A stretch of 33,231 bases of DNA, taken from a virus. Taxonomy: Duplodnaviria > Caudoviricetes. Both the position numbers and the translations under genes were made by a program. Below the pieces are notes generated by a model that ran no database searches, had not been told where the DNA came from, and saw only the letters and a program-made list of their open reading frames with translations. This document shows positions 2,109 to 33,231 of the stretch, one piece after another; the first letter of the stretch is position 1; every line of letters begins with the position of its first letter. The stretch covers positions 1 to 33,231 of IMG/VR virus record IMGVR_UViG_3300020045_002400. One strand, given 5' to 3'.

Positions 2109-4417
2109 TGTTGTGCTGTCACATGGTCAGCTTTAATTGTTACATTATGTAAATATCTATTAGCAACAGTTACCATAATATCATTTTTGGCTTCTGCAAT
2201 ATCCTTATAAAATTCACCTTTTTTAAATTTATGAGGTAAAAGTTTAGGGTCTATATTAGGATTAAATTCTAATAGTAAATCATCTTTAACTTTATCTACA
2301 ATTTCATCGTGTACCCACAATAATATTTTAGCTTTAAGTTTACGTTTACGATAGTATGTTCCTAATACTACACTAGCTTCTTTAACAAAATCAGCTTGTG
2401 TACCTTGTATTCTAATATTTCTAGCATCAGATTCATCTTTACTTATTTCTAAAAAATGCGTATCTTTATTTATTTCACCTTTAAGTTGTTTAATAAGATT
2501 AGGAAACCAAGCTCTAGAATTAGTTCTATAATTTAAAATAACGTAACCTTGTGCAATAGCGGCTGCTGTAGCACTTTTAACCATTCTAAATGTATCGGGT
2601 AATTCTTTTTCAATAGTATCTATTACTATCTTACCTTCTTCTTTAGGAATATTAAGGGATATACCTGCTTTCTTAGGATACATTCCATATATTACTCCGA
2701 ATGTCATTTTCTTAAAATCTTTTCTATATCCTGGAGGATCAGTTTTAGTAACAGTAAAATTTTTACCATTTTCTATGAATTTTTCCCATTCAGAATATAA
2801 AGCTTCACGAATACCACCAACAACTTTATTTAATTGTTTATAAATATTACCAGCACGTCGTTTAAATATAGCTCTCCAACAAACAGTAGCCATATAACTA
2901 TGCATATCTATTTTAGATAAACTAATAAGCTTAAAATCTTGAGCGTGAGAAGCCATAACAATTAATTCAGCACCTTCATAATCAGATGTACGTAATTTTT
3001 CACCTTCAGGAGCAATAAAACAACTTCTATATTCAAAAGTAGCAGGAACATTTTGAGATTGAAATTTATCAGGTTCTTTATTACCTCCACCTGATTGCAT
3101 TCTACCTGTAACAGCGTGATTTTGTCTATAAATAGTATGAAGTTTACCTGTAATAGGGTTAATTTTATTAATATAATTAAGACCGTAATTAGTAATTTTA
3201 GTATTAACTTCACTAAAACTATCAAATAAAAGTATAAAATCTTTCATTATAGTATTAGGTTTATCTATTAAATATCTTTCAAAACCAACAGTACTGACTG
3301 TATAATAATTTGAACCATTAACAATTTTTCCTTTATCAGTGATATTAGGTATTGCATATCCATTTTCAATAGGTAAAGGTTGATTGAGTCTACCAAATAT
3401 TCTAATAACTTCAGAAGGAGAGTTATAATCAGGATTTAAATTTCCATCTTCTTTATAATCTTTCTTATTAGTTAAAGCTTTAATAGTAGCAGGTTCACCA
3501 AATAAATCAAATACATTAGTAGTTTTATCACTATTGATTAATATACTTGCTTGTGCAGGACGTCTAATTTCATTATACTTTTTACCTCCTAAAGTTAAAG
3601 CAGGAGATAAACCCTTATAAAGCTCGTGATGTACAATAAAATCTCTTACCTTACGAATTTCTTCATCCATAGCTAATTGTAGTTCAAACTTTTTAGTTTT
3701 ATTAGCATTAAGAATACTAGTCCATTTTTCAATATCAAAATCAATACCTTCATTTTCACTATCAGCTAGTATAGATATTAGAGGAAATTCAATACCATAA
3801 ATAAGAAACTCCATCTTAAATTGTTTAATTCTAGGACGTTGTAATTGTCTTATTTTAAGAGGGTCATTAAGGTCATTAGCTAAATACTTAATATGATGAT
3901 ATTCAATATTAAAAGTTTCAACATTTTTATCTACAAATTCTAATCTAGTATCTTTATCTCTATATTCTTTAAGGTATCTTTTTACAAGTTCACCTAAATT
4001 ATTATATTGATAAAACTTCATATAAAGACGTTGTTCAGCAAGAATAACATCATATACACGAGTTAATAATAAACCATATTTAGCTTGTATAAATTTAATG
4101 TCAAATTTAAGATTAGCACCACATATTACAATTTTGTATTTAATAATATGTTCATATAAAAATGTAAGGTCAATATCATAACCAAATATAAATTGATTAG
4201 ATAATGTACCTATACCTGTTAACATAATATTAGATACATAAGGGTCTAATCCTGTAGTTTCTAAATCCAGTGATTGCATTTTAGATTTACCTATTACATT
4301 ATGGTACATTTTTCTACCATAGGCTTCATCTATAATAACCATATCTTCGAACTCTTTAATAGTAGGATTAAGTCTTTCTCTATAATATTCAGGTTTATTA
4401 GTTACAAAATATATCAT
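2096..4417 (-). CDS. polA: DNA polymerase family A with 3'-5' exonuclease domain
   Basis: ExoI DLETTGL, ExoII NLKFD, ExoIII YLAND; TGRMQS; motif A SDYEGAEL, motif B RKDFKKMTFGVIYG, IQGTQAD and motif C VHDEI. Confidence 0.96.
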   Translation of the reverse strand: MIYFVTNKPEYYRERLNPTIKEFEDMVIIDEAYGRKMYHNVIGKSKMQSLDLETTGLDPYVSNIMLTGIGTLSNQFIFGYDIDLTFLYEHIIKYKIVICGANLKFDIKFIQAKYGLLLTRVYDVILAEQRLYMKFYQYNNLGELVKRYLKEYRDKDTRLEFVDKNVETFNIEYHHIKYLANDLNDPLKIRQLQRPRIKQFKMEFLIYGIEFPLISILADSENEGIDFDIEKWTSILNANKTKKFELQLAMDEEIRKVRDFIVHHELYKGLSPALTLGGKKYNEIRRPAQASILINSDKTTNVFDLFGEPATIKALTNKKDYKEDGNLNPDYNSPSEVIRIFGRLNQPLPIENGYAIPNITDKGKIVNGSNYYTVSTVGFERYLIDKPNTIMKDFILLFDSFSEVNTKITNYGLNYINKINPITGKLHTIYRQNHAVTGRMQSGGGNKEPDKFQSQNVPATFEYRSCFIAPEGEKLRTSDYEGAELIVMASHAQDFKLISLSKIDMHSYMATVCWRAIFKRRAGNIYKQLNKVVGGIREALYSEWEKFIENGKNFTVTKTDPPGYRKDFKKMTFGVIYGMYPKKAGISLNIPKEEGKIVIDTIEKELPDTFRMVKSATAAAIAQGYVILNYRTNSRAWFPNLIKQLKGEINKDTHFLEISKDESDARNIRIQGTQADFVKEASVVLGTYYRKRKLKAKILLWVHDEIVDKVKDDLLLEFNPNIDPKLLPHKFKKGEFYKDIAEAKNDIMVTVANRYLHNVTIKADHVTAQHWVK

Positions 4418-4426
4418 AAGTACGAA

Positions 4427-4741
4427 TTAAAATGGTTGTCCTTCAATAGGATGAATATGTTTCTCTAGTTTATATAAAATATTAGTAACAGTTTTCATTC
4501 TAAGAGTTTGATGATTATTATCAGGGTAATCAAAGTGAAGATTACATAAAGCTTCTAAGAAAGATACTTGTCTAAATTCTATATAAGATATTATTATACT
4601 CATAAGGTAATCAAGAGGTACTTTTTCATATACTATATTAAGGTCTGCTTTGTTATTATTTAAATTACAAAATGCTCTTAAACCTATATAAGTATTAGGA
4701 TACTTAACTTTAATATTAGCAATATAGTCTTTACTTGTCAT
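4427..4741 (-). CDS. Hypothetical protein
   Basis: The ORF track gives 4427..4786 from a non-ATG start; the ATG at 4741 (MTSKDY) overlaps the end of the helicase gene and is the more plausible start. Confidence 0.7.
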   Translation of the reverse strand: MTSKDYIANIKVKYPNTYIGLRAFCNLNNNKADLNIVYEKVPLDYLMSIIISYIEFRQVSFLEALCNLHFDYPDNNHQTLRMKTVTNILYKLEKHIHPIEGQPF

Positions 4742-9922: not shown

Positions 9923-10471
9923 TTAGTCAGTTATTTCTATTACCCAATTAATTAAAGCATTATAACATTGTTCTGTTATAGTATCTTTATATTTATTAGC
10001 TAATTGTTTTATATAATTTTCTTTAGTAACTTTATAAGCAGCAAAAGCCAATTCTATAGTTTTATATGTACCTATTGAAGTCTGTTTTCCTTCTATACTT
10101 ATTCTACTTCTAAAAGAATTTCCTCTTTTATATACACCTACAGGATATAAACCTCTACTTGTATTAGATAATGTAAATACTACATTTATATCATTTGGTA
10201 CAAAACAACAAGTTTCAGGACTATATACTTTATTACCTTTAACTAATATATCTTTATCTAAACAATAGTTTTCTTTATAATTATCGTAATACCATTTAGC
10301 AAATATTTGAAAATTATGCCATTCTTCTGATACTGTACATCCTATATAATAAGGTTTCTTTTTTTGAATAGTATCATTATAACAACGTGCTAGCATATTT
10401 CTCCACGTTTCATAACAAGGAGTATGAGCTTTATAATCACCATTCCCGTGTATTCCAATAAGTCTTGTCAT
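9923..10471 (-). CDS. HNH-type homing endonuclease-like protein with AP2-like C-terminal domain
   Basis: YETWRNMLARCY, GCTVSEEWHNFQIFAKW and LDKDILVKGNKVYSPETCCFVPNDIN, followed by AP2-like GVYKRGNSFRSRI...IGTYKTIELAFAAY. Confidence 0.85.
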   Translation of the reverse strand: MTRLIGIHGNGDYKAHTPCYETWRNMLARCYNDTIQKKKPYYIGCTVSEEWHNFQIFAKWYYDNYKENYCLDKDILVKGNKVYSPETCCFVPNDINVVFTLSNTSRGLYPVGVYKRGNSFRSRISIEGKQTSIGTYKTIELAFAAYKVTKENYIKQLANKYKDTITEQCYNALINWVIEITD

Positions 10472-11904: not shown

Positions 11905-12171
11905 TTATTTTATAACATTATATGTTTTTAATTCTAATAATTCTGCTACTTTTTGTATAGCATCTTTAAAAGTATAAGCTGGGCTCTTTATTAATTCTTT
12001 ATAATTTAAACCTATACCTAATACTTTTTCATCTGTTGATACAATTAAAATATGTATTGTTTTATCTTCATTATATATTTCATCTATATAACCATTTGTT
12101 ATAGTATTAAGATTCTTTATAGATTCGGATGCTAATGTAGCTTTTAACCATTCTTTAGTAAAAGGGTTCAT
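11905..12171 (-). CDS. Hypothetical protein
   Basis: 88-aa co-oriented ORF. Confidence 0.7.
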   Translation of the reverse strand: MNPFTKEWLKATLASESIKNLNTITNGYIDEIYNEDKTIHILIVSTDEKVLGIGLNYKELIKSPAYTFKDAIQKVAELLELKTYNVIK

Positions 12172-12201
12172 AATATTTGTAGTTTTAATGGTTAATGTAT
12201 C

Positions 12202-12529
12202 AGTTATAAGATATGTAGGTTAAAGTTTAGATATTAATGATAATGTAGTATTAACTTTTCTTCTGTTAAATAACCTAATACATCAGCAGTAATAGGTGTA
12301 GTATAATCTAATTTACCGTCTTTATCTAATACTGCTAATTCCCATAAACCTTCTTCGTGTCCATAAGAGAAAGAATGTTGTACAATACTAGCTCCATAGC
12401 CATTATCGGCTTTAAAATGAATATTGTATTCCTCCATTAATAGGTCTTGAAGGTAAAGTTTTAAAATCTATTGTATTGTCAGTTGTGTTCATAATAATTT
12501 GTTTAAATTGGTTAGTTATAAGATATGTA
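12202..12529. repeat. 16-bp perfect direct repeat agttataagatatgta (12202-12217 and 12514-12529)
   Basis: Read directly; each copy lies 21-30 nt upstream of a minus-strand ATG. Confidence 0.8.
12220..12492 (-). pseudogene. Small phage protein (NGYGAS...GLWELAVL type) with two compensating frameshifts
   Basis: The ATG 12492 frame reads MNTTDNTIDFKTLPSRPINGGIQYSF*. The core lies in another frame (12234..12437) and the tail VNTTLSLISKL* returns to the first frame. Total span is 273 nt. Confidence 0.6.
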
Positions 12530-12565
12530 AGTTTAACTTAATATTATTACTATATCGGGTTGAGG

Positions 12566-12575
12566 TGCAAAGGTA
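12566..12575 (-). promoter_or_regulatory. Bacteroidota sigma-A -7 promoter element
   Basis: Minus-strand TACCTTTGCA matches TAnnTTTG, ~75 nt upstream of the first small leftward gene; no clear -33 TTTG. Confidence 0.55.
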
Positions 12576-12599
12576 GGGATTTTGTTGAGAATGTTAATG

Positions 12600-13100
12600 A
12601 AATGTGGGCTAAAGGTTGAAAAATAGGCGGTTGGTTGTACGATAATTTGATGGAAATAATGTTAATCCATTGTGAACGATGTATTTGGAAATAGGCTGGA
12701 TTTGATTGAGATTGTACCTATATATATATAGGTGTAATTAGTCAGCTAGTTGTTTGAGGATTTTGATTACTTGTTTTAATAGGTAAGTGAGTGTTATTAT
12801 GAGAGTTATAAGTATTAAGATAGAAATAATAGGATGGAATGTGAAAATAGATTGAATAAATGACATAAGTTAGACGGTTAAATGGTTGAGGATAAGGTTA
12901 TAAAGGTTAATATAAATTGGTATTGAAGATTATAGGTTGTAATTGATTGATTTAGAAGGGGTAAAGGGGTTTATGAGGGTATTAGTTGAGGTAATAGTGA
13001 AAAGGACTTGGGAGAGAAGGGGATTTAAGGGATAAGTGAAAAACGGGAATATGAGGTTAATTTAGAGGTGTTGAGGGATATGTGGATATTGGTGTATGTA
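12600..13100. other. C-depleted, G-rich non-coding tract
   Basis: Only 4 C in 12781-13080; no ORF in the track. Confidence 0.9.
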
Positions 13101-13143
13101 CATCTGTAGCTGTATAGCTGTGCCTCTTCTCGATTATTTCATA

Positions 13144-13575
13144 AATAATAACAATTATATAGGCTGAATAACATAAAGATTACCTTGCATTATACTATCA
13201 CTCCATAGCTTTACAAATTAAGGGGTAAACTGAGTTCTTGTTAGACTACTTAAAACCTATATAATTGTATTATTAATAACAGTCCAGAGTAATAGTAAAT
13301 TAACCTTAAAAAACTACCACTCTATCGGACTGTTACAACTACTATAAGCGCATTACTAGTCATACCTATGTTTACTAGCCGTTATGTGCCACTTATGCTA
13401 CGGATATTATGAGGTACTATACTTCACTCAAAGTCTATTATCTCTTATAGTAGTTTAATCATCATTACCAAACCTCTTTTAATCCAGTAATAACAATATA
13501 TTAATATCTTTTACCCTGCTACTACTAGCTCTCCTAGGTTATATACATTTACATCACTAGTAGTAAGGGCAAAGA
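13144..13575 (-). ncRNA. Array of four stem-closed units; candidate structured RNA(s)
   Basis: Stems 13144-13163/13256-13274, 13277-13296/13313-13335, 13337-13348/13444-13455 and 13507-13528/13557-13575; A-C mismatches become G-U on the minus strand. Confidence 0.55.
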
Positions 13576-13583
13576 GTGGATAG

Positions 13584-14144
13584 TTATTCACTATCTTTAC
13601 GTTCAAATTCAATTGGGTTATAAGTATCTCTTTCAGGTATTATATCAGCAGGAATTTTAAAAGCCTTTTTAGGTAATACAGGTTCAGTAGCAAGAGCAAT
13701 ATCTCTAGCCATATTATTATTATTCTCTTTAACTATATCAGCAGTATTTTTTAACGGTTTATTTTTATTCTTTAAATAATCATAAACGTGAACCTTCTTT
13801 ACCAATGTATTACTAGCTCTTTCTATCTTTTTAATTACTTCATTATATTCTTCTTCATCAATATGGTTAACTAATTGCATAATTTTACGTTTAGTACACC
13901 ATAGTTTATAGTGTTTATTAGCTTGAGTAAAAGAAACTATAGCAAAAGTAAAAGATATAATAGCAAGAGATAATAAAAGAATACATTGAAATAAGAAAGT
14001 AATACCAAAGTTATAGACTTCTGTAGTACCAAGTGGTTGGAAGTCTGTGGTTATGTTGTTGTATGATAATACAGCGTACTTTATTAGTAATACTGTGATG
14101 AATAAGGATAGTAATCCTATTAATGATAGTTTAATTGTTTTCAT
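13584..14144 (-). CDS. Membrane protein with two N-terminal TM segments and a basic soluble tail
   Basis: Hydrophobic runs LSLIGLLSLFITVLLIKYAVL and FGITFLFQCILLLSLAIISFTFAIVSF. Confidence 0.75.
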   Translation of the reverse strand: MKTIKLSLIGLLSLFITVLLIKYAVLSYNNITTDFQPLGTTEVYNFGITFLFQCILLLSLAIISFTFAIVSFTQANKHYKLWCTKRKIMQLVNHIDEEEYNEVIKKIERASNTLVKKVHVYDYLKNKNKPLKNTADIVKENNNNMARDIALATEPVLPKKAFKIPADIIPERDTYNPIEFERKDSE

Positions 14145-14212
14145 TTGTGTATGTATTTATGTTAGTTGAATGTAATGTGAGTTTGATTAGTAATCTGAGT
14201 TTAATTAGAGGT

Positions 14213-14261
14213 AAAAAATAGTTCCCGTATCCTGCCTCGAGAGCACCCATTACGGGCACTA
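14213..14261 (-). terminator. Possible intrinsic terminator with an alternative pairing
   Basis: Minus strand reads tagtgcccgta-(21 nt)-tacgggaacta-tttttt, downstream of 14312..14941. Confidence 0.5.
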
Positions 14262-14311
14262 CACGAGAGCAGTTTACGAGAGCTATTAATCAAGCAGGAC
14301 TAGCTACCTTA

Positions 14312-14941
14312 CTATTTAGCAGGTTTAGCAGGTTTAACTGATTTTTGAGTAGCATCTTCAGGAACCATATCAAATACTGTTTCAGCTGGTGTTTCAACAA
14401 CAGGAGCAACAATAGCTTGCGGTTCAACAGGAGCAGATGCAACAGCAGGAGCACCAATACCAAACAAACCTTGCATAATAATCAAAGGATTAGCACTAGC
14501 AAGGAAAGCTCTTTGAGCATTCTCCAAATCAGTCAATGGGAATGTTACAAAGCCTTCAATACGAGAACCTTTCTTTTCAGTGAAAAGTATTTGTCCTACT
14601 TTAGCCTCTCCACGTACTACAGCAGAACTAACTTCTGTAGCTACATATTCAGCACCAGCCTCGTAGAATTCAACATCGGCAAATCCAGATTTACCAATCA
14701 ATCCAATGATAGACTCACGGAATAGATTATGCATAATAGGATTAGCACTATCAACTCCATTATCATATAGACCAGAAGGTATATTAGATGCACGAGCTGA
14801 TTTGTGTAAGTCAAGCAATGCTTGTTTACAAGTTCTAGCAATTTGTTGTGTTGTTCCATTAACAACTACAGTTAGACCTACGAATGGCTCTGTTCCAGCT
14901 TTCGTAATAATGTCTGAGGCGATAACATTGAATGTTTTCAT
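14312..14941 (-). CDS. Hypothetical protein with Pro/Ala/Glu-rich C-terminal tail, probably highly expressed
   Basis: 209 aa, somewhat higher GC with biased codons; first credible gene of the left arm. Confidence 0.85.
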   Translation of the reverse strand: MKTFNVIASDIITKAGTEPFVGLTVVVNGTTQQIARTCKQALLDLHKSARASNIPSGLYDNGVDSANPIMHNLFRESIIGLIGKSGFADVEFYEAGAEYVATEVSSAVVRGEAKVGQILFTEKKGSRIEGFVTFPLTDLENAQRAFLASANPLIIMQGLFGIGAPAVASAPVEPQAIVAPVVETPAETVFDMVPEDATQKSVKPAKPAK

Positions 14942-15140
14942 AATTAAAATATTTAAGGGTTAAAGATTACAAGTGGTTAACACGTTCATAGGCAACTAAA
15001 CTAACACTATCATAAGTTTCTACAAACTTGAATTAATATGTGTCTTGAATACCAATTTTAGTTTCAAGTTTAATTGCCACGGAATGTGGACGGGGTATGT
15101 TAAATCCCCGAAATGATGTGGGGGTAATTCCACGGGTGGG

Positions 15141-15441
15141 TCTATATCCATATAACTCATATATAATTTTACCTCCAATACATCAATATATACTAATCTC
15201 TAAAATCCTATCCTTTTAATCCTTTTCTAAACTCTTACCAATTTCTTCTTCAATAACCTCTTACAACCCTATATAACCTCTCCCTATTTTCCCAAAATTT
15301 TTTATATCTACTAATACCCAAAAATTTATATTTAATTTTATATTTACCAACATCAAAAAATCTACCATATTTTATAATATTTTTTTTATTATACTTCTAT
15401 ATATAATAACCTTTCCATATCTATATCTATATCCTACTCTC
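15141..15441. other. 301-bp tract with no G on the plus strand
   Basis: Last G at 15140, next G at 15442. Confidence 0.95.
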
Positions 15442-15517
15442 GTAAAATTGGTAATAATACCTATAAGTTCATTAGTACTAACAAGTCTAGGATGGTATAT
15501 AGGAAGAGGGTCAAGAC

Positions 15518-15688
15518 TGCCCTTAGGAGAAGGTTTATACGTGTTAGTAAGATTTAACAAAATTTTAACATTTTAAATTAGGACTATATAGGTGGTATTG
15601 TTATATTTCAAATATATATATTTATATATAGTATTATATACTTAAATGTATATAAAACCTAAGACGATTAAACTCTTTCCTATGGGCA
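15518..15688. repeat. 24-bp motif pair 3 (- copy 15518-15541, + copy 15665-15688)
   Basis: cgtataaaccttctcctaagggca (-) and cgattaaactctttcctatgggca (+), located in the strand-switch region. Confidence 0.9.
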
Positions 15689-15866
15689 GGCTATTACTGC
15701 TCGAACGACATACAGAATTATACATACTTGTACACATGGAACTGAGGCTATTACTACAGGTAATCCTACTTATGCCTAGGTAGTTGCCCCTCGTCCGCCA
15801 CCTTCACACACAAATAATAATGAAACAAATATAACATTTACTAACATAATTTAAAACATAATAACG

Positions 15867-16388
15867 ATGGCAAACGGTATTATTCCTATCAAACTACAAT
15901 TATATAGAGATTTACTTACTACTTCTCTTAATTCTCTTACTAATGAAATGTATGCTAATAACATTAAAACAAGTTATAAGTATGATTTCACTGCTGTACC
16001 TAAAACAGCTTATCCTTCTATTGCTAATCCACATAAAGCTTTATACTTATTTAGAGTATTTGCAATAGATAAATCTAGAAATCCAATTGGAGAAACTCAC
16101 TACCTATACAACCAATACTACTCTAAAGATATTATTGAAGCTGTACATCTTATAGAAACTAAAGCTATTCAAGAATGGTTTGTTATGTCTTCTAAAGCTT
16201 TATATAATGTTATGCATGATATGTATATTGATGAAGCTAAAGCTAAACAAGATATTAAAGACTCTTTTGCTGCTGAAGGTGTAACAGAACAAAACCTTAA
16301 AGCTAAAGGTGATGCTGAATTTGATAATGTTATTAAGCAACAAGAAGCTAAGATAGTAAAAATGATGCCTAAGATTATTACTGAATAG
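15867..16388 (+). CDS. Hypothetical protein
   Basis: 173 aa, first gene of the rightward module. Confidence 0.8.
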   Translation: MANGIIPIKLQLYRDLLTTSLNSLTNEMYANNIKTSYKYDFTAVPKTAYPSIANPHKALYLFRVFAIDKSRNPIGETHYLYNQYYSKDIIEAVHLIETKAIQEWFVMSSKALYNVMHDMYIDEAKAKQDIKDSFAAEGVTEQNLKAKGDAEFDNVIKQQEAKIVKMMPKIITE

Positions 16389-16390
16389 CA

Positions 16391-16825
16391 ATGAATATTG
16401 ATAATACTTTAGCAAAGATAATAACAGAAACCCAAAAGGCTATTGCTAAAGAATATGGTATAGATTTAACATTTGAACAAGTACATGAAGTTATAGAAGT
16501 TCAATTAACTTCAACTGTATATGCTCTTACTAAGAATATACCTATTCATTGGCGTGGTTTCTTAAAGTTTATATGGACTAATAAAAGAGCTCGTAAAGCT
16601 GAATTTGACCCTGTCTTTAAAGCTATACAAGATAATGCTCATAATCTTACTGATAAGGAAATTGATTATTATACTTACTTAGCTGGTGTTGCGGCTAGTT
16701 CTGCTAAACAAGAATTAGAAAGATTAAGTCAACATTCTAAAGTTCTTAGTCCGGAAGAAGTAAAAGCTATTCCTACTAAGGTAGAAAAGTTTAGACAATT
16801 TACTTGTTTAATTAAACAAAAATAG
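16391..16825 (+). CDS. HU/IHF-like DNA-binding protein
   Basis: AIAKEYGIDLTFEQVHEVIEVQL...ALTKNIPIHWRGFLKFIWTNKRARK matches the HU/IHF helix and RGFxxF pattern. Confidence 0.65.
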   Translation: MNIDNTLAKIITETQKAIAKEYGIDLTFEQVHEVIEVQLTSTVYALTKNIPIHWRGFLKFIWTNKRARKAEFDPVFKAIQDNAHNLTDKEIDYYTYLAGVAASSAKQELERLSQHSKVLSPEEVKAIPTKVEKFRQFTCLIKQK

Positions 16826-17500: not shown

Positions 17501-18472
17501 ATGATACCATTAGTAGAATCACAAGCCAAAGAATTAATCTTTACTGAACACAACCATAAATATCGTGATGAAAATAATGTTGTATATACATCTGTTACTA
17601 CACTTATAGAGAAATATAAGAATCCTTATGATAGAGAATTTTGGAGTATGTATACTGGTCTTAAAGATGCTGGGTATAGACTTAAACCTTATCCCGAAGA
17701 ACAAGCTATTAGATTAGGAAGTGTTAAATATAAACTTGCTGATTTAAAGAAAGAAACTTATTATGTACAATTACAAGACCTTACTAAAGCTAAGTGGGAT
17801 TTAAAAACTACAGAAGCTTGTATGCGTGGTAATGGTATACATAATGGTATAGAACTTGGTATTAATAAAACTCGTAATGATATACAAGCTAGAGATAATG
17901 ATTTAATTACTTATGAAACTAATCCTTTTAAATACGGTAAGAATATATCTAGTCTTAATGATTTAGACGCTTCACCACTTAAAACTGATTATCCTTTTAT
18001 ATATAATAAATTAAAACCTCTTGTAGAAGGCGGAGCAACTGTTTTAGCAGAGAAACGTGTATATCTTTCTAAATATAAATTAGCTGGTACTATTGATTGT
18101 CCTATTATAAAAGGTAAATATTTTTGTATTTTAGATTGGAAATCTAATGCTGCTGATATGCATGATACACCGGGTTATTATCAGAAAGTAAATATAGGTG
18201 GTGAATGGATAAAATCAGATAATTGGATAATAACAGAAGATAAGTTTAATGCTCCTATTAGTCATATACCTGCTTCCAAGTTTCATACATACTGTTTACA
18301 ATTAAGTATATATGCTTATATTATGGAACAATGGGGATATACTCTTATACAAAATGGTCTTGCCATCGTCCATTATCCTCTTAACAAAGAGCCTGTATAT
18401 CTCCAAGTTCCATATTTAAGAAATGAAGTTATAGCCTTATTAACTGACCATAACAGAAAGCTCTCCGCATAA
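17501..18472 (+). CDS. PD-(D/E)XK nuclease (RecB/Cas4-like fold)
   Basis: SVTTLI, RGNGIH, AEKRV, AGTID, ILDWKSN and YCLQLSIYAY. Confidence 0.88.
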   Translation: MIPLVESQAKELIFTEHNHKYRDENNVVYTSVTTLIEKYKNPYDREFWSMYTGLKDAGYRLKPYPEEQAIRLGSVKYKLADLKKETYYVQLQDLTKAKWDLKTTEACMRGNGIHNGIELGINKTRNDIQARDNDLITYETNPFKYGKNISSLNDLDASPLKTDYPFIYNKLKPLVEGGATVLAEKRVYLSKYKLAGTIDCPIIKGKYFCILDWKSNAADMHDTPGYYQKVNIGGEWIKSDNWIITEDKFNAPISHIPASKFHTYCLQLSIYAYIMEQWGYTLIQNGLAIVHYPLNKEPVYLQVPYLRNEVIALLTDHNRKLSA

Positions 18473-18507: not shown

Positions 18508-18951
18508 ATGAATAATGCTTTATTTTTAGATATACCTAATATAATCAAAACTAATAGTAAACAAGCGTTTCCTATACATAGAGAAGATTGGTTTATCCCG
18601 CAAGCAGTTAAAGATATTATTAAGAAACATCTTGAATTTAATTATAAGATTGTTCTTATTGGTAATTATCCTGAAGTATATGTAAATAAACGTGAACTTA
18701 ATCCTATAGAAAATTTATTACGTAATATTGCAGATAAACTTGAAGATGAATTTAAAATGAAACCTTTTAGTATTAGTTATGATTATTCTACTGATTCTAA
18801 TTCATTTGAACATTTACCTCTTCCAGGTATGTTTTATAATCTTGCTTATGAACACGAGTTGTTATTAGGTTATTCTTTTATAATTACTAATGTAACTATA
18901 GGTAAATTTATACAACAATATTCAGGTATTAAACCTATAATAATAGAATAA
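18508..18951 (+). CDS. Degenerate HAD-family (PNKP/GmhB-like) phosphatase homologue
   Basis: ALFLDIPNIIKTNSKQAFPIHREDW resembles FxDLDGTLIxTxSGxxFPxxxxDW; IVLIGNY and LPLPGMF correspond to motif II (TNQ) and motif III (KPxxGM). Confidence 0.55.
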   Translation: MNNALFLDIPNIIKTNSKQAFPIHREDWFIPQAVKDIIKKHLEFNYKIVLIGNYPEVYVNKRELNPIENLLRNIADKLEDEFKMKPFSISYDYSTDSNSFEHLPLPGMFYNLAYEHELLLGYSFIITNVTIGKFIQQYSGIKPIIIE

Positions 18952-31000: not shown

Positions 31001-31981
31001 ATGCCTAATAATATTATACCACCGAATGATACTCCGGGAAAATTAAGAGTACCCGCTCAAGTAGTATTAGATGCTAAAACAAAAATAGCAACTATAGCTT
31101 CTCTTATAGATTTAGGTCTTGATGATAATTTAGCCTTTACTTATTATAAAGGTTTAGTTGTAAAAGTTGATGAAGATTTAAGTTCTTGGGAATGGAGAGA
31201 GGTTAGTGTTCCTGAAGAAGTTGGATTAAGACCTGTACATTTTTTATATCCTACTGATTATATAGTAGATGGGGTTGATTATTCTAATAAACTTTATAAC
31301 TTTTTTCTACCTAAAGCTATACAAAGTGTATTAACAGGAACAAGTTATAAAAGAACAATAGCACAAATAAGAGCTTTAACTGGTATTTTACCTACTAATC
31401 TTTTTTATACAATTGATTTAGGAAAAGAAGGTAATTGGTATTATGATGCATCGGATACTACAAGTGTAGATAATACAGGAACTGTTTTAGTTACACTAGA
31501 TGGTAAAAGAATTAAGAGAATTTATAAAGACGCTGAAATAGTTTCTTGGTTTGATTCTCCAAATAACTCTACTGATTTAGCTTTATTTAACAAAATAATT
31601 GCATCTTCTACAACTAAAAAAATAATATTTGATAAAGGAACATTTAACTTACAAGCTTCTAATGCTCCTTTAGTAGCTGGATTAACTTTAATAATGCAAG
31701 GTAGTGTTATACAAAATGGTGATTTAACAGGTAATGGGGCAGTAATCGAAAGTACTTATGAATATGAGGCACTTAAATTAAGTTCTTCTGGTGTTTTTGG
31801 ATATACTTCTCAGGTATATTATTATAAAACTATGCAAGTTGCTAAAGCTAGTAGGCACTGGGGAGGAAAAAGAATTGTTACAGGAGGTTTTTGGTATGAA
31901 AATGATGGAGGAGGTGCTGAATATACAATACTAAGTCATTCAGAAGCTAATGCAGATAATATTTATTTTAATAGTTATTGA
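31001..31981 (+). CDS. Tail fibre/tailspike protein, probably truncated
   Basis: Modules [30 protein letters not shown] and [15 protein letters not shown] are typical of tailspike N-terminal regions; ends at TGA next to a compositional shift. Confidence 0.65.
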
Positions 31982-32052
31982 AATAATATATAATGTAGTT
32001 AAATAAAAGACAAAGAATGGTTATTTTAACCATATAAAAAGAGAGGTGTCCC

Positions 32053-32589
32053 ATTTGTGATCCGGTAACAATGACCACAATCGCTGTCGGCGCAACAGTA
32101 GCATCTGGTGCATATTCAGCACACAGTCAATATGCTCAAGGACTTGCTCAAAAGAATCTATATAAAGCTCAAGCTGCTCAAGCTCGTGAACAAGGTGCAT
32201 TAGCTATTCGTGAGTCTGAACGTCAAAGCACTTTAGTTCAAGATACCGCAAAAGAAGAAGGTAAGCGTCTTAAAGAATCCCAAGCAGAATTTAATGCTTC
32301 TACTCGTGCTTCTATGGCAGCTGCTGGTGTTTATGGTGGAACAGCAGAAGATATTCTATCAAACAATATTAACAAAGAACAGCGTGATGAAATGGCTTTG
32401 CGTTATAACGCTGATGTTAAATCTTGGGAAGCTATTACTCAAGGTCGATATAGTAAATGGGCATCTGACGTAGAATCAGAAAATTTAGAATACGCAGGTC
32501 GTCAAGCTAAAAAGGCTGGTAAACGTGCAGCTATTGGTACGTTATTAGGTACGGCTGGATCAGCATTTAATATGGTTAAATTGAAATAA
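32053..32589 (+). CDS. Podovirus-type internal virion (ejection) protein, T7 gp14-like
   Basis: Ala/Gln-rich helical protein with QAEFNASTRASMAAAGV and Gly-rich hydrophobic ends; in-frame upstream ATT-CDPVT gives the typical MCDP start. Confidence 0.65.
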   Translation: MCDPVTMTTIAVGATVASGAYSAHSQYAQGLAQKNLYKAQAAQAREQGALAIRESERQSTLVQDTAKEEGKRLKESQAEFNASTRASMAAAGVYGGTAEDILSNNINKEQRDEMALRYNADVKSWEAITQGRYSKWASDVESENLEYAGRQAKKAGKRAAIGTLLGTAGSAFNMVKLK

Positions 32590-32595
32590 TATAAT

Positions 32596-33231
32596 ATGCC
32601 AAAAATACAAACATATGAGCAAAGAATAGGTTTAGACACACCAAACGTTCCAACCCCCCGTCAACCAGGTAATAATAGTTTATTAATGAGTGGTTTAAAT
32701 GCTGAGTTTGAAGCTAATCAAAACATTGCATCTACCGTCGGTAAATTAGGTGGCATGCTTGGAGATTACGCTAAGCAGCAACAAAAAGAATACAACGATA
32801 CTCTTATTGCTAATAACTATAATAATTATCTTCGTGAGATGGATGATAAGATGTATAGTTCAGAAACAGAGACTGTTGATATTAATGGGCAAAAACAAGA
32901 TCGTATAAAGGGCGTTTTAAACAGACCATTAGATTCTGCTGCTGGATCATTTAATGAAACAGAAAATTATTACAATACAAAAGTACGTAATAAATATTTA
33001 GATTCTATTCCTGATAAAAGTGCTAAGTTAGAATTAGCACGCATGATGGATAAGAATTATTATACGACTTATCGTGAAGCATCTCTAAAACATGAAGCTA
33101 AGCAAGTTCGTGAATCTAAAATTGCACAGTTAATACATCCACGTTTTGGTTTACTTTCTTTTACTTTTTTTATAAATTCAGGTTTATATCTTATCTTCAT
33201 TATTTTAATCCAATATATTGTCCAAGTTCTA
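32596..33231 (+). CDS. Podovirus-type internal virion protein, partial (open to window end; not in ORF track)
   Basis: MPKIQTYEQRIGLDTPNVPTPRQ... with no stop before 33231; the last ~33 codons look unrelated. Confidence 0.55.
   Translation, partial: MPKIQTYEQRIGLDTPNVPTPRQPGNNSLLMSGLNAEFEANQNIASTVGKLGGMLGDYAKQQQKEYNDTLIANNYNNYLREMDDKMYSSETETVDINGQKQDRIKGVLNRPLDSAAGSFNETENYYNTKVRNKYLDSIPDKSAKLELARMMDKNYYTTYREASLKHEAKQVRESKIAQLIHPRFGLLSFTFFINSGLYLIFIILIQYIVQVL

Follow-up and report, generated by a model that had tools for sequence, protein, structure and literature searches.

A 301-nt G-free tract beside the predicted edge of a direct terminal repeat in a crAss-like phage

Why one strand of a phage genome should run for 301 nt without a single G is the question raised by the locus described here. 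The window (the whole stretch of DNA that was analysed, 33,231 nt) was assigned to a crAss-like phage: it encodes the TerL, portal and major capsid proteins by which Crassvirales are recognised, all three matching crAss families, and conserved-block matches were obtained to phrog_6681, 6547 and 11589 and to PF23898 (E = 4.6e-45). All 60 TerL matches listed, out of 148, were crAss-like, Fpv or gut phage records. Among the matches listed, identity to cultured crassviruses was below 33%, and the clade is therefore uncultured. Giant ORFs with the DFDxD motif (virion RNA polymerase) were present in both complete relatives (2/2), the gene lying outside the 33-kb window. PolA and two helicases are encoded on the opposite arm of the window; no DnaG-type primase marker was detected among the window ORFs scanned. 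An HNH endonuclease gene is located in the early arm (9923-10471). At the other end (31981-33231) a tail-fibre-like ORF is cut early and followed by a T7 gp14-like internal virion gene of higher GC, and the frame ends in a T-rich stretch; this last ~1.2 kb of the contig is foreign-looking and likely includes one or more chimeric joins, which leave the tract unaffected.

Composition and conservation of the tract

The tract, its mirror partner and a promoter match were delimited as follows:

15141..15441, plus strand: G-free, C-rich tract (C-free and G/A-rich on the minus strand), adjoining the predicted right repeat edge on the outside
12557..13098, plus strand: mirror tract, poor in C (G161/C17), outside the predicted left repeat edge
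12568..12575, minus strand: match to TAnnTTTG, which we take to be the Bacteroidetes-type -7 promoter consensus, at the distal end of the mirror tract and directed toward the early genes

The base count over 15141-15441 was T129 A103 C69 G0, and the next-longest G-free run anywhere in the 33-kb window was 63 nt. Under an independent-base model the expected number of 301-nt G-free runs is ~3e-18 at the G frequency of the window, and still 6.6e-4 if G were 5%. No tandem array spanning the tract was found with TRF, which returned pieces of 17-29 nt only. The MFE of the tract RNA was -4.5 kcal/mol over 301 nt, the same as that of shuffles (z -0.24), so that the lack of folding is a consequence of composition. 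The original prediction, which had described an exact and non-repetitive run of 301 bases without G, beyond chance and free of structure as a single strand, is borne out by these values; it had overlooked the mirror tract, which lies ~2 kb to the left with two minus-strand genes in between and contains C-free runs of 131 and 93 nt on the plus strand.

As DNA, a 150-nt segment within the tract gave folding values of -2.9/-3.7 against a window-wide median of -8.8, and segments within the two tracts ranked among the weakest folders on both strands, A-T stems still being predicted in the distal tract. The G+C content of the tract equals that of the surrounding locus. All six frames are interrupted over the tract and G has no frame bias (p = 0.34); as judged from its sequence, the tract is non-coding DNA.

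Relatives were gathered via the 209-aa protein described below, TerL and two alignments. Identical or same-species contigs were counted once and L065, L067 and L069, which end too soon past the G-run box (see below), were excluded, leaving 16 readable loci. A strong G-poor tract of 111-332 nt was present in 12 of the 16 (L004-L008, L010, L011, L015, L018, L020, L064, L068), one had a weak tract (L058), and it was missing in three (L055, L061, L063). G-free runs at the same place in relatives reach 326 nt, and in both complete relatives (82 and 83 kb) tracts of this kind are confined to this locus. Six gut-type loci (~30% identity) had no tract in the stretch examined, which covered at least 3 kb upstream of TerL. 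In L063 a GIY-YIG endonuclease gene occupies the place of the tract (reverse strand, directly past the G-box).

Pooled over 13 right tracts, the composition was A.33, C.31, G.007, T.36; over 12 left tracts, taken in the direction leading away from the repeat, it was A.34, C.30, G.02, T.34. Composition, not sequence, is retained in the 12 relatives, and the alignments of the window with L007 and L005 break across the tract. Substitution rates within it are ~neutral, with many indels; in the right tracts of the three closest pairs only 1 of 65 substitutions involves G, against ~12 gains of G expected from 153 control non-coding substitutions (P ~2e-5). Free gain of G in homologues, the outcome which the original prediction had held to speak against it, was therefore not observed. 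These data favour selection on the composition of the tract, with very fast strand-specific loss of G as a less likely alternative. The 301-nt run is not unique in kind but stands at the extreme of such flanks.

Several other elements were observed around the two tracts. The promoter-match site at 12568..12575 was also seen in L004, L005, L007 and L008, and a TTAACA pair lies upstream of it (12568-12600). A conserved palindrome with an internal TA run is located inside the left tract (~12713-12735). A 31-nt direct repeat (12202-12232 and 12514-12544, 84%) upstream of two small minus-strand early genes is a possible early promoter or operator. Beyond the right tract, 15518-15688 holds an inverted pair of ~25-nt motifs (TGCCC core) that encloses a TA-rich core and two copies of TTTAACA and is retained in L004-L008 and L010; its variable positions fail to pair consistently, which points to protein sites rather than an RNA stem, and the pair appears origin- or regulator-like. 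Rfam gave no match at E <= 1 over 12000-16000, a sigma-70 scan remained at chance level (24 vs 21.2), and no terminators were found.

The G-run box and the predicted genome ends

The features between the two tracts, and the exonuclease gene beyond them, are:

15090..15140, plus strand: conserved G-run box, with runs starting at 15092 and 15120 (28 nt apart) and G3 runs at 15134 and 15138
13090..13110, no strand: G-rich/C-rich switch, predicted left repeat edge (G37/C2 in the 100 nt to the left, G12/C18 to the right)
13101..15138, no strand: predicted direct terminal repeat of ~2.04 kb, placed by homology
14312..14941, minus strand: 209-aa gene, predicted OB-fold ssDNA-binding-like protein, first gene in the predicted repeat
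13584..14144, minus strand: second gene within the predicted repeat, 186 aa, its product hydrophobic in the N-terminal half
17501-18472: PD-(D/E)XK-type exonuclease gene

Before the tract the original prediction had placed a GC-rich hairpin. Its stems are not conserved and its folding is no better than that of shuffles (z -0.93), and a box of spaced G-runs fits better. A spacing of 27-30 nt between two G-runs was found in 11 of 12 crassvirus sequences checked (the window, DAC15, DAC17, crAss001, crAss002, Fpv1, phi14:2, cr1_1, L055, L058 and L061); the twelfth, prototype crAssphage, has a single G-run. A scan of viral contigs with the G-box motif yielded 120 loci, 103 of them with a GC of at least 45%, and was abandoned, none (0/120) matching proteins of the clade.

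The ends were predicted by comparison with DAC15 and DAC17 (MT074136/MT074138), which are near-identical and therefore count as one independent mapped case. An exact direct terminal repeat occupies positions 1-1842 of the DAC15 record and holds minus-strand genes at the strand switch; according to the available part of bioRxiv 2020.03.04.977157, it was assigned by PhageTerm. In both phages the mapped right end lies 18 nt past the start of the second G-run, and in DAC15 it is followed by 50 C-rich nt (G2/C13). The mapped left end of DAC15 is a switch from a G-rich (G14/C4 before) to a C-rich sequence (G2/C16 after). From the 18-nt offset, the right cut of the window is predicted at ~15138, three bases before the G-free run. 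The predicted ends of the window thus share the sequence context of mapped crassvirus ends, represented by one independent case.

When switches were scored over the whole 33 kb, 15141 ranked first and 13101 third; the best switch in the last 6.5 kb of DAC15 was 6 nt off the mapped end. The distance from box to left switch was 1.64-2.45 kb in 12 clade loci, some from the same genome. At 2.04 kb, the predicted repeat of the window falls in the published range of 1.84-2.45 kb. Repeats of crAssphages mapped from reads are given as 1,853-2,452 bp in Table S6 of PMC6712665, in its available part as lengths without coordinates; in prototype crAssphage both switches are present at a distance of 1,913 nt, versus a listed repeat of 1,853. 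Among the 21 contig ends near the anchor gene in 21 contigs, six fell within 70 nt of a predicted edge versus 1.0 expected (P ~6e-4), the other 15 lying elsewhere and L045 being a possible seventh, uncounted, and the contig L065 (2,051 nt) covers the predicted repeat almost exactly, but the comparison is confounded, as G-runs alone can break assemblies and L065 contributes two ends that depend on each other. The tract is real, its composition is conserved and probably selected, and it most likely forms the flank of a terminal-repeat edge; the predicted position at the edge of a direct terminal repeat is put forward with good confidence.

Other crassviruses differ in what has been reported of their ends. 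The available passages of PMC8042965 describe crAss002 as pac-type headful; a sharp left switch and a full G-box occur there 2.2 kb apart (L196:5347, L196:7499), and a repeat may have been overlooked. The repeat of crAss001 is given as 576 bp (PMC6235969, available part), the box being present without a G-poor tract and without a strong left switch. Three isolates were reported without repeats in the available part of PMC10028833. The crAssBcn records begin at arbitrary points and permit no mapping of ends, and the stretches compared from ProJPt-Bp1 and cr127_1 stop short of the strand switch. L060 and L061, two separate contigs, start at the identical base ~930 nt before their G-box, possibly the physical end of a shorter repeat.

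The model of the 209-aa protein is an OB barrel (pLDDT ~90 over residues 1-150). Similarity was obtained to a crassvirus protein that bears the name SSB (E = 5e-4), and the gene of the 209-aa protein occupies the slot in which prototype crAssphage has its annotated SSB, gp02; a profile comparison of the 209-aa family with gp02 gave no match, and Foldseek on PDB with the model returned nothing at E <= 0.001. Against SSB, RPA and telomere OB domains the model gave middling Z values of 5-7 (best 7.0), which indicate its predicted fold, not its function. The 186-aa protein had membrane-family matches below cutoff only. A weak HU/IHF-like match, below cutoff (16391-16825), and a PNK3P phosphatase match (18508-18951) were each found in a gene before TerL.

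Proposed role of the tract and alternative readings

The two tracts agree in polarity: in each, the strand that is G-rich and C-free points 5' to 3' toward the repeat and stops at its edge. Inside the edges the 3'-terminal strands are also G-rich, through the box at the right and a C-rich plus strand at the left (L005-L007, L011, L020, L068, DAC15 and crAssphage). Terminase or an associated nuclease would cut ~18 nt past the start of the second G-run. Should the repeat be duplicated in concatemer packaging through staggered nicking and strand displacement, the C-free strand would serve as primer; should the ends be resected 5' to 3' and joined via the repeat, it would be the one left single in the gaps. 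In T7, 5' resection of the ends is followed by joining through the terminal repeat. A three-letter strand forms no G-C snap-backs, so its free 3' end would stay extendable; it would also be accessible to the predicted OB-fold protein encoded within the repeat. That the tract is kept G-free so that its strands cannot fold back when single-stranded during end processing is proposed with the chances evenly balanced; taking the terminus assignment as given, such a fold-free role is somewhat favoured. Fold avoidance alone leaves the choice of G or C for each strand unexplained, the tract of DAC15 is short, and L055, L061 and L063 have none. Since some relatives are without it, a long tract would assist the process but not be required for it.

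A landing zone on single-stranded DNA or RNA, serving as an origin unwinding element, a rut site or an entry region for virion RNAP, had been suggested by the original prediction. The structure-free strand stands, but these three functions ignore the position at the predicted repeat edge and the mirror partner. Entry of virion RNAP is a possible use of the exposed strand. The virion polymerase of phi14:2 uses ssDNA as its template, and no motif is common to its early transcripts (available part of bioRxiv 2020.03.07.982082). Two abundant non-coding RNAs of phi14:2 were rejected as homologues of the tracts, as they lie at 2904-4602 of its record, skew-free and distant from its G-box. A wider proposal, offered tentatively and considered unlikely as a whole, is that crassvirus ends are telomere-like: every strand ending 3' at a repeat edge would be G-rich and C-poor, the tails, exposed by resection after injection, would bind the OB-fold protein and load virion RNAP, and the box would be an order-wide terminase signal. 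If so, early transcripts without a promoter motif would be explained and genome ends could be predicted from sequence alone via the two-G-run box.

The tracts could instead be Rho-loading (rut) sites that insulate the genes of the terminal repeat from the operons on either side, early and late. Such sites are C-rich, G-poor and unstructured, and the tracts (C ~30%, G <2%, unstructured, >100 nt) have this composition over more than the minimum of at least 70 nt. The C-rich strand of the left tract is the sense strand of the two repeat genes, downstream of which this tract lies, with the promoter match behind it, whereas the right tract is C-rich on the plus strand, with neither an upstream plus-strand gene nor a TAnnTTTG match within the predicted repeat. 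An enrichment of TC was seen in right tracts (346 vs 299 expected), left tracts being close to expectation (380 vs 374). For the C-rich stretch just inside the left edge a third, antisense transcript would be required, and the coincidence of the switches with mapped ends is left unexplained. This reading is regarded as doubtful.

Equally doubtful is a replication origin, in which the tracts would be unwinding elements, or R-loop leaders whose G-rich RNA primes synthesis, with initiator sites at 15518-15688. The duplex at 15301-15450 is the second least stable of 662 windows, but the left tract does not melt easily (133rd most stable of the 662, at 12901). Hybrid advantage (R-loop score) ranks 1-3 for plus-strand RNA over the left tract and 5 for minus-strand RNA over the right one, scores that composition alone explains. 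At 15609 the window, L005 and L007 have a leftward promoter match, which in L006, L008, L010, L011, L018 and L020 is found on the opposite strand. Location of an origin near the termini would be compatible with a terminal repeat, and two origins ~2.6 kb apart were predicted computationally here in prototype crAssphage (PMC10983915, available part); those rest on OriFinder, skew and coverage, and a terminal repeat would be expected to yield the same signals.

In an improbable reading, strand-specific mutation (ssDNA deamination) and micro-duplication beside genome ends left the tracts behind as a neutral scar. This reading accords with the polarity, which matches the strand exposed after 5' resection, with the ~neutral sequence turnover, with tract lengths from 0 to 330 nt and with the co-variation of A/T balance between both tracts within genomes (rho 0.75, n = 11, kinship uncorrected). 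Deamination, however, should reduce G+C, which stays at the level of the locus, and should render the C-free strand T-rich, where A equals or exceeds T in most genomes; the left tract of the closest pair (3/219 substitutions) shows no rate excess. Sequence exchange between right and left tracts was above shuffles in 2 of 11 genomes only, both rich in micro-repeats, and a specific inverted repeat across the left switch was not clear individually at any of 17 junctions (z -0.9 to 1.9).

A low-complexity acidic peptide encoded by the purine-rich strand in codons without C is highly improbable: the tract of prototype crAssphage is covered by the annotated gp01 and contains a 52-aa frame rich in D/E/N/G, and 3-nt periodicity occurs in L018, L068 and crAssphage, but the interrupted frames and lack of frame bias contradict it in the window, no peptide is common to 13 clade tracts, and the periodicity is compatible with micro-repeats of 3/6/9 nt. 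A sequencing or assembly artefact, to which the foreign-looking last 1.2 kb of the contig might point, is very unlikely indeed, because G-free runs at this position reach 326 nt in relatives and the tract recurs in 12 independently assembled relatives, as well as in prototype crAssphage.

With the flank of a terminal repeat as the preferred reading, the box and the two switches give a base-level, testable prediction of both termini, applicable to the cultured crAss001, crAss002 and phi14:2 and to metagenomic genomes filed as circular. The terminus rule can be tested directly, while the role of the tract is a proposal. The prediction puts the headful call for crAss002 in question and allows the two predicted origins of prototype crAssphage to be read differently. 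It also bears on how crassviruses form, duplicate and join their ends (PMC10136315, available part) and on the start site of a virion RNA polymerase that prefers ssDNA (bioRxiv 2020.03.07.982082, available part). No description of the tracts or of the G-run box was found in the literature searched, of which coverage was partial; the tracts are not described in the available passages of PMC10983915, PMC6235969, PMC6712665, PMC8042965, PMC10136315, PMC10028833, PMC8375218, PMC5923468 and PMC7886860, or of bioRxiv 2021.06.01.446427, 2020.03.04.977157, 2020.03.07.982082 and 460113. In their available parts, crassvirus papers give repeat lengths or name the sites origins, and Fig. S7 of PMC6712665, a 100-bp GC skew with the repeats boxed, may already display the spikes.

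Comparison with known systems

DAC15 and DAC17 (Steigviridae) resemble the window in a repeat of ~1.84 kb with the first minus-strand genes, a two-G-run box just inside the right end and a G-rich/C-rich switch at both ends. Their flanks are ~50 nt and not fully G-free, whereas those of the window are 300-540 nt.

Prototype crAssphage (Carjivirus communis; repeat ~1.9 kb) likewise has this gene order, with a putative SSB inside and a PD-(D/E)XK nuclease and TerL outside, and both switches, with G-free runs of 41 and 184 nt that meet at the record origin. It differs in its one G-run, in the ORF annotated over the tract and in repL after the tract; the annotation of gp01 over the G-poor tract may be spurious. 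Near the two switches (L193/L194; record 96671-62, ~1975) lie the two origins predicted in the literature, and the repeat edges are predicted near positions 60 and 1975 of BK010471.

Variable repeats beside both termini are described for the T7-like fPS phages (PMC5923468, available part). For an analogy to T7 hairpin ends, no paper was found in the literature searched. In T7 itself, G-runs lie inside the right end of the 160-bp repeat and are followed, ahead of the first promoters, by a non-coding stretch rich in C and poor in G; the G-to-C switch is 3 nt from the right end of the repeat, with C57/G22 beyond. This stretch is presumably the SRL (left-end short-repeat region), an array of one heptamer. 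The tract of the window is likewise non-coding, with more C than G, directly past a right repeat end, which here is predicted. T7 retains 22 G in 190 nt and its other flank is not C-poor; the window has no unit repeat, only weak 4-5-mer preferences, and its two flanks are mirror images. With rut sites the tracts share a C-rich, G-poor and unstructured composition, but they are longer and form a mirror-image pair, one member being on a strand without an upstream gene. Taken across these systems, the tract most likely represents an extreme variant of a pattern common to DAC15, crAssphage and T7.
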